DNA of 50,777 bases from Candidatus Nomurabacteria bacterium (GCA_943357245.1 CALRGH010000002.1:1-50777), one strand, 5' to 3'. Numbered from the stretch's first letter, positions 22,950 to 24,008 are shown. A program made the numbers and translations. Notes: generated by a model from the sequence alone, not told the origin.

Positions 22950-24008
22950 TTATAGTAATCCTGCTTTTTTCTTGATTTTATACGTGCTTCCATGACCAAG
23001 TAGCCCTTTGTATGAAATACGAGTCGGCTCACTCAAAGATTCCTCTAATCTTGCAACCATACGCCACTTGGTCGATGTCCTTAGTGTGCGATGTGTTGGA
23101 AAATGCACCCAGCCGAGAAAATCTACACCAGACGCATGAGTTTTGATAAATACTTTATTCGGATGCATTGTCAATTTTAATTTTTCTGCAAGAAAAACCT
23201 CTAATTTCGGCAACAATAATTCCAAATACTTTTTATCATCACTCAAAAAGACAAAATCATCTGCATAACGAATACAATATTTCGCTTTGAGATCCCGCTT
23301 CATAAACTGATCAAATTCATGCATATAAATATTTACTAATAATTGCGATGTAAGATTCCCTAACGGCAACCCAACAGGAAAACTATCAATTATTTGATCT
23401 AAAAGCCAAAGAGTGTCTTTATCATAAATATGTTTTGCAAGAATTGTTTTTAAAATACCATGGTCAATGTTCGCAAAAAATTTCCTAATGTCACACTTGA
23501 GCACCCAGCACGTCCTCGTATTATTTTTTGACACCTTGCGTGCAAAATAGCGAAACCTGTCTATTGCCCGATGTGTACCTTTACCTATACGACATGAATA
23601 CGAGTCATAAATAAACTTGCTATCAAAATATGCATATAGATTTCGATAGAGCGCATGATGCAACAACCTATCTCCCACACTAGCTTTGTGAATATCGCGC
23701 GGTTTTGGATCATTGAGCTTAAATGCCACATACCCGCCATGCGTATACGTTTTTTCTTTCAGATTTTTATGAAGCGCAATGATGCTATCCGAAAAATGTA
23801 ATGCAAACAATTCAACATCTTTCCTTTTTTGTTTACCACGCAAAAATTCCTGCCACGAGATAAGTAAGTTTTCGACGGATATGATATTCTTGTACTCATG
23901 GCGCAAGACTCCTCTCTCTCTCTCTCTCTCTCTCTCTCTCTCGGTAGCGCAACCATAATTACGCGCATCAAAGAGGGATATTTGCTGTGGATGAATATTG
24001 TTTCTCAT
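22950..24008 (-). CDS. DGR reverse transcriptase
   Basis: 352 aa; YADDFVF catalytic box; GLPLGNLTSQ (LGxxxSQ, the DGR-RT signature). Start is either ATG 24008 or the in-frame TTG at 23906 just 3' of the (GA)n tract. Confidence 0.9.
   Translation of the reverse strand: MRNNIHPQQISLFDARNYGCATERERERERERGVLRHEYKNIISVENLLISWQEFLRGKQKRKDVELFALHFSDSIIALHKNLKEKTYTHGGYVAFKLNDPKPRDIHKASVGDRLLHHALYRNLYAYFDSKFIYDSYSCRIGKGTHRAIDRFRYFARKVSKNNTRTCWVLKCDIRKFFANIDHGILKTILAKHIYDKDTLWLLDQIIDSFPVGLPLGNLTSQLLVNIYMHEFDQFMKRDLKAKYCIRYADDFVFLSDDKKYLELLLPKLEVFLAEKLKLTMHPNKVFIKTHASGVDFLGWVHFPTHRTLRTSTKWRMVARLEESLSEPTRISYKGLLGHGSTYKIKKKAGLL

Follow-up and report, generated by a model that had tools for sequence, protein, structure and literature searches.

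A CT repeat within two antisense-overlapping genes as a likely slipped-strand switch of diversity-generating retroelements in Patescibacteria

In Helicobacter pylori, sabA and hopZ, like oipA, have a run of CT dinucleotides in the 5' part of the coding sequence. For oipA, slipped-strand ON/OFF switching through this repeat is described in passages of PMC10564699. Here we analyse a (CT)15.5 repeat in a 50,777-nucleotide stretch of DNA from Candidatus Nomurabacteria bacterium (GCA_943357245.1 CALRGH010000002.1:1-50777; the whole stretch is called the window below), where it lies in an overlap between avd and the reverse transcriptase (RT) gene of a diversity-generating retroelement (DGR). As far as those passages describe it, oipA is the closest match in mechanism: (CT)n follows a few codons past the start, is read as Leu and Ser, and changes of 2 nt shift the frame. 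However, oipA has one repeat in one surface-protein gene and its switching was shown experimentally, whereas the repeat in the window would serve two genes on opposite strands that encode a mutagenesis machine, and its switching is proposed from comparative sequence analysis. In Haemophilus influenzae, a (TA)n repeat lies between the divergent fimbrial genes hifA and hifB, in their overlapping promoters, and acts through the spacing of the -10 and -35 elements. One dinucleotide repeat between divergent genes controls both in that system and would do so here; in the window, however, the repeat lies inside both coding sequences and would act via the reading frame. Related junctions in which the repeat is poly-C (C8-C18) resemble the coding homopolymer ON/OFF tracts (poly-G/C) of Campylobacter jejuni and Neisseria, as outlined in excerpts from the literature on these genera; these tracts stand beside oipA as the closest match in mechanism. 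The genes under their control encode surface structures or restriction-modification systems of host-adapted pathogens, whereas the junctions studied here belong to a retroelement of environmental Patescibacteria.

The locus is a bona fide DGR of type TR-(avd)-RT, in which TR stands for the template repeat. The long form of the RT (22950-24008, - strand; 352 aa) runs from ATG 24008 through the repeat and matches Pfam RVT_1 (E = 6e-22); its translation contains LGNLTSQ, in agreement with the [LIV]GxxxSQ signature of the DGR clade. The closest solved structure was 8ub7_A, labelled 'Reverse transcriptase' (E = 4e-39, alignment from residue 41), which we take to be bRT of the Bordetella phage BPP-1; by this alignment, the RT in the window has about 30 extra N-terminal residues. 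The avd gene (23898-24308, + strand) encodes a bAvd-like accessory protein of 136 aa when read from ATG 23898 through the repeat, and matches Pfam PF22296 (E = 2.7e-14; 54 bits against a cut-off of 40). The match covers residues 33-124, from profile position 16, showing that the domain begins directly past the tract. No match to the 136-aa Avd was found in an exact protein look-up. The TR (24364-24493, - strand; 130 nt) forms a repeat pair with the variable repeat (VR; 24812-24941, - strand), which lies at the 3' end of the DGR target gene (24802-26724, - strand; 640 aa, VR at the C-terminus, no Pfam match) and ends 8 nt before the stop codon of the target open reading frame (ORF). All 24 differences between TR and VR fall at TR adenines.

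With TR and RT on the - strand and avd on the + strand between them, the locus has architecture B3. According to passages of Wu et al. 2018 (PMC5758913), B3, that is TR-(avd)-RT with inverted avd, makes up 90% of the set of DGRs from the Candidate Phyla Radiation (CPR), and the B3 elements described there have the same gene order and inverted avd as the window. The coding overlap, the N-terminal extension of RT and the junction repeat are unmentioned in the passages of PMC5758913 examined. Like the BPP-1 DGR, the locus has both an RT and Avd, mutagenesis from TR to VR is specific for adenines, and the target gene carries the VR at its 3' end. In BPP-1, however, as far as the passages of PMC5758913 cover it, avd, TR and brt share one strand, their coding sequences do not overlap and a repeat is absent; its RT also lacks the about 30 extra N-terminal residues of the enzyme in the window.

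The tract itself (23912-23942) is a pure (CT)15.5 run of 31 nt, with a period of 2 and 100% matches by Tandem Repeats Finder and inspection of the sequence. Its 15.5 units exceed the length associated with contingency loci (at least about 5 dinucleotide units or at least 8 homopolymer bases). Together with two T9 runs, it makes up all mono- and dinucleotide repeats of the 50.8-kb window. A CT run of 12 nt was expected only 0.07 times per dinucleotide-preserving shuffle of the window, and the observed count was reached in none of 100 shuffles. The tract starts 14 nt past the A of the avd ATG (23898-23900) and can be read on both strands: in avd (+) it is read as Ser/Leu repeats (MAQDSSLSLSLSLSLGS...), and in the RT frame opened by ATG 24008 (-) it is read as (ER)5. 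Its end on the RT strand is ...GAGAGGAGTC, followed by TTG 23906. No other in-frame ATG stands between the tract and Avd helix 1 in the window. The original prediction, made from the window sequence alone, had proposed a slipped-strand switch on the basis of these details; the tract position, the distance to the avd ATG, both readings, the GGAG/TTG arrangement and the missing alternative ATG before helix 1 were all recovered here.

Related loci were gathered from GTDB genomes (80), metagenomes (80) and exact-protein look-ups (42). Both genes could be anchored in 190 loci, which gave 143 distinct junctions from Patescibacteria. RT was divergent from avd in 190 of 190 anchored loci, the conserved cores of the two genes were typically 23-71 nt apart, and the Avd proteins of related lineages were 60-82% identical to the queries. 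A repeat was present at the equivalent spot in 141 of the 143 junctions: 105 carried (CT)n of 9-43 nt (median 19), 29 carried poly-C of 8-18 nt, six were mixed and one was poly-G, and two were repeat-free. By this comparison, the presence of a repeat at the avd/RT junction is conserved; its length and motif are not. Nearly all Avd homologues of 60-74% identity had SLSLSL directly before helix 1, and the residues N-terminal of this motif were unconserved. A role of SLSLSL as a protein motif alone was ruled out by the pure CT composition of the DNA, the free variation in length and the replacement by poly-C in some lineages. When a metagenome scan was seeded with the Avd of L021, one of the repeat-free loci, no repeat-free relatives were found; further repeat-bearing loci were recovered instead. 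Two of the loci were unusual in other respects. The L166 junction (~700-760) was out of frame, its N-terminal region was atypical, and its run on the avd strand was G9 in place of the usual C or CT. The short contig L091 carried two inverted copies of one 107-aa avd, at 378-701 (+) and 1598-1921 (-), each by a partial RT; a palindromic misassembly is one possible cause, a genuine inverted duplication another.

In the window, avd and RT overlap head-to-head in antisense over 111 nt (23898-24008, both strands), with the repeat near the avd-proximal end; across the 143 junctions the overlap measured 92-151 nt (median 105). Every locus had an ATG shortly upstream of the tract. Its reverse complement is an N-terminal His codon of RT, and this codon was CAT in 142 of 142 junctions, compared with 62% CAT at other RT His codons. 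The RT start codon ATG (24006-24008, -) is in turn antisense to the Avd His37 codon, which was CAT in 142 of 143 junctions (about 48-62% at other His codons); the resulting antisense ATG sits about 65 nt beyond the tract on the RT strand. Across Avd codons 18-37, the codon-aligned antisense frame, which is that of RT, was stop-free in 143 of 143 junctions, and the two other antisense frames contained stops in 87 and 141 of them. In control segments of Avd, the aligned antisense frame was interrupted by stops in 27-47 of 76 loci. The Leu and Ser codons TTA, CTA and TCA, taken among all Leu/Ser codons, were absent from Avd 18-36 (0/293) compared with 267/1246 elsewhere in Avd. Single positions were similarly constrained: E26 was GAG in 136/138 (background 30%), L29 was TTG in 134/142 (background 23%), K25 was AAA in 140/141, G27 was GGA in 106 of the scored junctions (background 21%) and I24 was ATC in 105/115 Ile codons (background 26%). 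Judged from these codons, the synonymous-site bias in Avd 18-37 keeps the predicted antisense RT peptide M-R-N-N-I-H-P-N-Q-I-S-L-F-D.

No locus had a stop between the avd ATG and the tract, and no conserved Avd start was found downstream of the tract among the homologues, although helix 1 begins there. The conserved ATGs and open frames did not depend on the current phase of each tract. Taken together, the codon bias and the retention of both ATGs and an open frame argue that the avd/RT overlap is head-to-head and dual-coding, with the repeat inside both ORFs. We are highly confident that the repeat is a conserved, length-variable element predicted to be translated in both genes. On the comparative evidence and the allele simulation given below, it lies within an ORF downstream of the start, and its length sets the frame.

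Starts that would bypass the repeat were also considered. On the RT strand, TTG 23904-23906 (-) lies just past the repeat, with GGAG at a 2-nt spacer. Of 139 junctions, 42 had a canonical start in the stretch from the repeat to the RT core, TTG 23906 of the window included, and 97 had none. TTG 23906 is probably not the main RT start. Initiation there with the tract as ribosome-binding site was rejected as a general rule, on the count just given and on the conservation of the upstream ATG together with its frame and peptide. A non-canonical Avd start past the tract (e.g., at the invariant Ile20) had no consistent purine-rich motif upstream and would leave the conserved upstream ATG unexplained. 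In a separate part of Avd (codons 78-117, window ~24129-24248), one non-aligned antisense frame was mostly open, with stops in 7/76 and 20/76 loci, compared with 45-66 of 76 for the same frame in three other 20-codon segments of Avd; this could reflect composition or another antisense constraint.

Tract length differed between assemblies with otherwise identical flanks. An ENA assembly of the same organism (L081) had a tract of 27 nt, compared with 31 nt in the window, with 0 mismatches over 6.7 kb. A Logan contig of the same organism (L082) ended inside the tract. In a poly-C lineage with identical flanks, the ENA samples held C8 (3 contigs), C9 (10), C10 (5) and C13 (1), and a close relative of this lineage had C12. 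One CT lineage with identical flanks had tracts of 25 nt (7 contigs), 27 nt (3) and 31 nt (1), and another had 15, 17 and 19 nt, representing all three phases. More than one length was seen in 6 of 18 flank-identical groups, in addition to the pair of window and L081. Repeat number is thus polymorphic among near-identical genomes, as in contingency loci.

The effect of length on both proteins was followed in simulated alleles of the window. Full-length Avd (134, 136 or 138 aa) and RT (350, 352 or 354 aa) were obtained only at 25, 31 and 37 nt. At 27, 29, 33 and 35 nt, premature stops left 15-20 aa of Avd and 36-83 aa of the long RT. The window would therefore hold an ON allele and L081 an OFF allele. 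Relative to the Avd domain, the avd ATG was in frame in 36 of the distinct junctions, shifted by +1 in 51 and by +2 in 55; the RT ATG was in frame in the same junctions, by construction. The in-frame share of about 25% was not significantly different from a uniform one third (chi-square). In 92 of the 105 junctions that were out of frame, avd had no other canonical start. The cores of both genes were nevertheless intact in the out-of-frame set, indicating that OFF states would be transient and not a sign of decay. Both repeat-free loci were in frame, namely L021 and L030, the latter with a degenerate CTT/TCT remnant.

We propose that slipped-strand mispairing during replication would add or remove 2-nt CT units. 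One length in three would keep both ATGs in frame with their cores, and the other lengths would truncate Avd and the long RT together. DGR cDNA synthesis depends on Avd as well as RT, as established for the Bordetella phage DGR, so that the repeat would switch targeted mutagenesis as a whole. Hypermutation of the target gene at 24802-26724 would thereby be turned ON and OFF stochastically, in a heritable and reversible way. Because a length-variable repeat is found at the same spot in nearly all related CPR systems, a random, reversible mutator switch is its most likely role. We therefore consider it likely, from sequence comparison, that the repeat is a slipped-strand phase switch gating Avd and RT together. 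High-rate replication slippage, its reversibility, the effect at the protein level and the control of DGR activity and VR diversification are what we infer from these patterns. With a little less assurance, we favour the broader view that nearly all CPR TR-(avd)-RT DGRs carry such a stochastic switch, in which one hypermutable repeat frameshifts both genes and leaves an active-mutator minority and a locked-target majority; this would be the first repeat known to gate two antisense-overlapping genes.

The wider comparison has been favourable to the original prediction. It had asked for orthologous loci, among which the repeat proved to be family-wide (141/143), with poly-C in place of (CT)n in some lineages. 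Its suggestion that Avd is translated through the repeat agrees with the retained upstream ATG (CAT in 142/142 compared with 62%) and with the lack of a conserved downstream start, and its suggestion that RT would be frameshifted as well if ATG 24008 is used agrees with the retention of this ATG (142/143), a stop-free frame (143/143) and the synonymous bias that preserves the antisense peptide. It had named two observations that would speak against a switch: an invariant tract length in related strains, and an avd start downstream of the tract combined with an RT start at TTG 23906. Length instead differed in the same organism (31 and 27 nt) and in six more lineages, and a start like TTG 23906 was limited to 42/139 junctions. 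The slipped-strand interpretation thus gains support from the family-wide repeat, the polymorphism and the conserved starts and frames, and it stays a proposal drawn from DNA comparisons.

Initiation of avd may be of an unusual kind. An extended -10-like element, TGATATTCT (23882-23890, +), ends 7 nt before the avd ATG. The pattern TGnTAnnnT was found at -16..-8 of the avd ATG in 116 of 142 junctions, and the RT Ile codon (within 'IIS') that supplies the G of the motif was ATC in 129 of 135, compared with a background of 27%. This suggests that the avd mRNA may be leaderless or near-leaderless. A generic sigma-70 promoter scan of 23600-24700 returned no matches, the -10-like element included, and a comparison of the related junctions gave no fixed -10-like motif ahead of the RT ATG.

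Several observations weigh against a phase switch. The length evidence comes from differences between assemblies, and consensus calling may explain part of it, especially for poly-C. A lineage whose tract measures 16 nt showed no length variation in 9-10 contigs. In the 42 of 139 junctions with a canonical start past the repeat, the window among them, an RT lacking the extension could be made at any repeat length. Neither a Shine-Dalgarno sequence nor an RT promoter was identified by the promoter scan and the junction comparison; a leaderless avd mRNA would fit the missing Shine-Dalgarno sequence. Finally, in-frame junctions were not enriched, and the same distribution would be expected if phase were irrelevant for expression.

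The last point also fits the most probable of the alternatives, in which the phase is corrected at the RNA level by RNA polymerase slippage or ribosomal frameshifting, and the tract sets a low, roughly constant expression with no ON/OFF states. A DNA phase that does not matter would fit the near-uniform phases (36/51/55) in combination with out-of-frame loci whose cores are intact and whose ATGs and frames are conserved. Transcriptional slippage on long homopolymers is established biology; we know of no such established slippage on dinucleotide repeats. RNA-level correction also gives no reason for the two loci without a repeat to be in frame. Moreover, DNA length polymorphism was seen directly and would alone yield uniform phases, so that a correction of this kind is not needed. 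We regard it as improbable as a replacement for the DNA switch. The two are compatible, and slippage could make OFF states leaky.

A second alternative is that the repeat is an untranslated element: the purine run would be a ribosome-binding site or 5' untranslated region for a core-adjacent RT start, or else a promoter spacer or triplex-forming element between the divergent genes, Avd would start downstream and length variation would be harmless. A subset of loci does have ATG, GTG or TTG 2-10 nt past the purine run (e.g., GAGAGGAAAATG; in the window, GGAGTCTTG), and gene callers annotate avd from an internal Met, giving calls of 99 or 107 aa. However, 97 of 139 junctions have no canonical RT start past the repeat, there is no conserved Avd start past the tract, and tracts of up to 43 nt far exceed what a ribosome-binding site needs. 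The antisense ATGs (142/142 and 142/143), the open frame (143/143) and the synonymous bias would all be left unexplained, and we hold this alternative to be quite unlikely. A chance or neutral microsatellite, or an assembly artefact, could be suspected because repeats are assembly-prone and one Logan contig ends inside the tract, but we give this hardly any credence, as the tract was present in three independent assemblies of the same organism, repeats stood in 141/143 junctions across many Patescibacteria lineages and were mostly uninterrupted, and the tract is the sole such repeat in 50 kb, with its count reached in 0/100 shuffles. A slipped-strand switch acting on both genes remains the reading we prefer.

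Other features lie close to the avd/RT junction. A terminator-like hairpin with a T-run (24297-24312, - strand, that is, the strand of TR and RT), found by consensus scan only, stands at the avd stop codon and may mark the end of the TR RNA and, in the opposite direction, of avd. A second small hairpin, GAAATC-CTA-GATTTC, lies between TR and avd (24309-24363). Given these hairpins by the TR, the TR RNA may be a separate short transcript that is not co-transcribed with RT. Directly upstream of the DGR target gene is an ORF with an IS200-like Y1 transposase domain (26731-27468, -; 245 aa, PF01797, E = 2.6e-10).

The window also contains repeats of other types. Short arrays of heptamers (CTACTNA, CTTGCTA or AGGTTCT; TAGTAAG-like on the opposite strand) were seen at no fewer than 12 sites, among them 48-70, 2314-2387, 8083-8112, 12944-12973, 13259-13363, 29217-29246, 30818-30852, 34325-34339, 39535-39565 and 49638-49667. 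Nearly all of them lie in gaps between ORFs of at least 120 aa, adjoining gene ends. Every frame is rich in TAG and TAA, and the arrays might act as multi-frame stops, terminators or regulatory repeats. A tandem repeat with a 30-nt period, GGATTTGTTGGTGGGTTTGTGGGATTTGTG (11530-11667; 4.6 copies, 89% matches), lies in a 596-aa ORF (10458-12248, -) and probably encodes a repetitive protein segment.

The findings bear on annotation. Public annotations of related loci give Avd lengths of 99, 104, 107 or 115 aa and RT lengths of about 296-317 aa; in others, one gene was extended at the expense of the other. These truncations arise because gene callers disallow head-to-head coding overlaps, and as a consequence clusters at 90% identity mix 107-aa members with members of about 130-185 aa. 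Use of the 107-aa Avd calls as a marker of OFF alleles was considered and dropped, since the internal Met was picked in lineage P0189 despite an in-frame upstream ATG, avoiding the overlap. Gene models of the commonest CPR DGR type need revision, with RT starting about 30 codons earlier than annotated and an antisense overlap of avd and RT.

Compared with known repeat-driven phase variation, the novelty would lie in its application to a DGR retroelement mutator and in the position of one repeat within two antisense-overlapping coding sequences. In the literature searched, no account connecting DGRs with simple repeats or phase-variable tracts was found; Paul et al. 2017 (Nat Microbiol), which is said to be the main paper on CPR DGRs, lay outside this coverage, and an earlier mention is possible. 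It is an open question how DGR hosts restrain mutagenesis after a useful variant has appeared. To our knowledge, no mechanism for such restraint has been described in CPR bacteria. A heritable and reversible frame switch in two essential DGR proteins would, if true, supply it, and the fraction of in-frame alleles could be checked against VR diversity in existing metagenomes. It would also mean that hypermutation controls hypermutation, and it would place the logic of contingency loci outside host-adapted pathogens.

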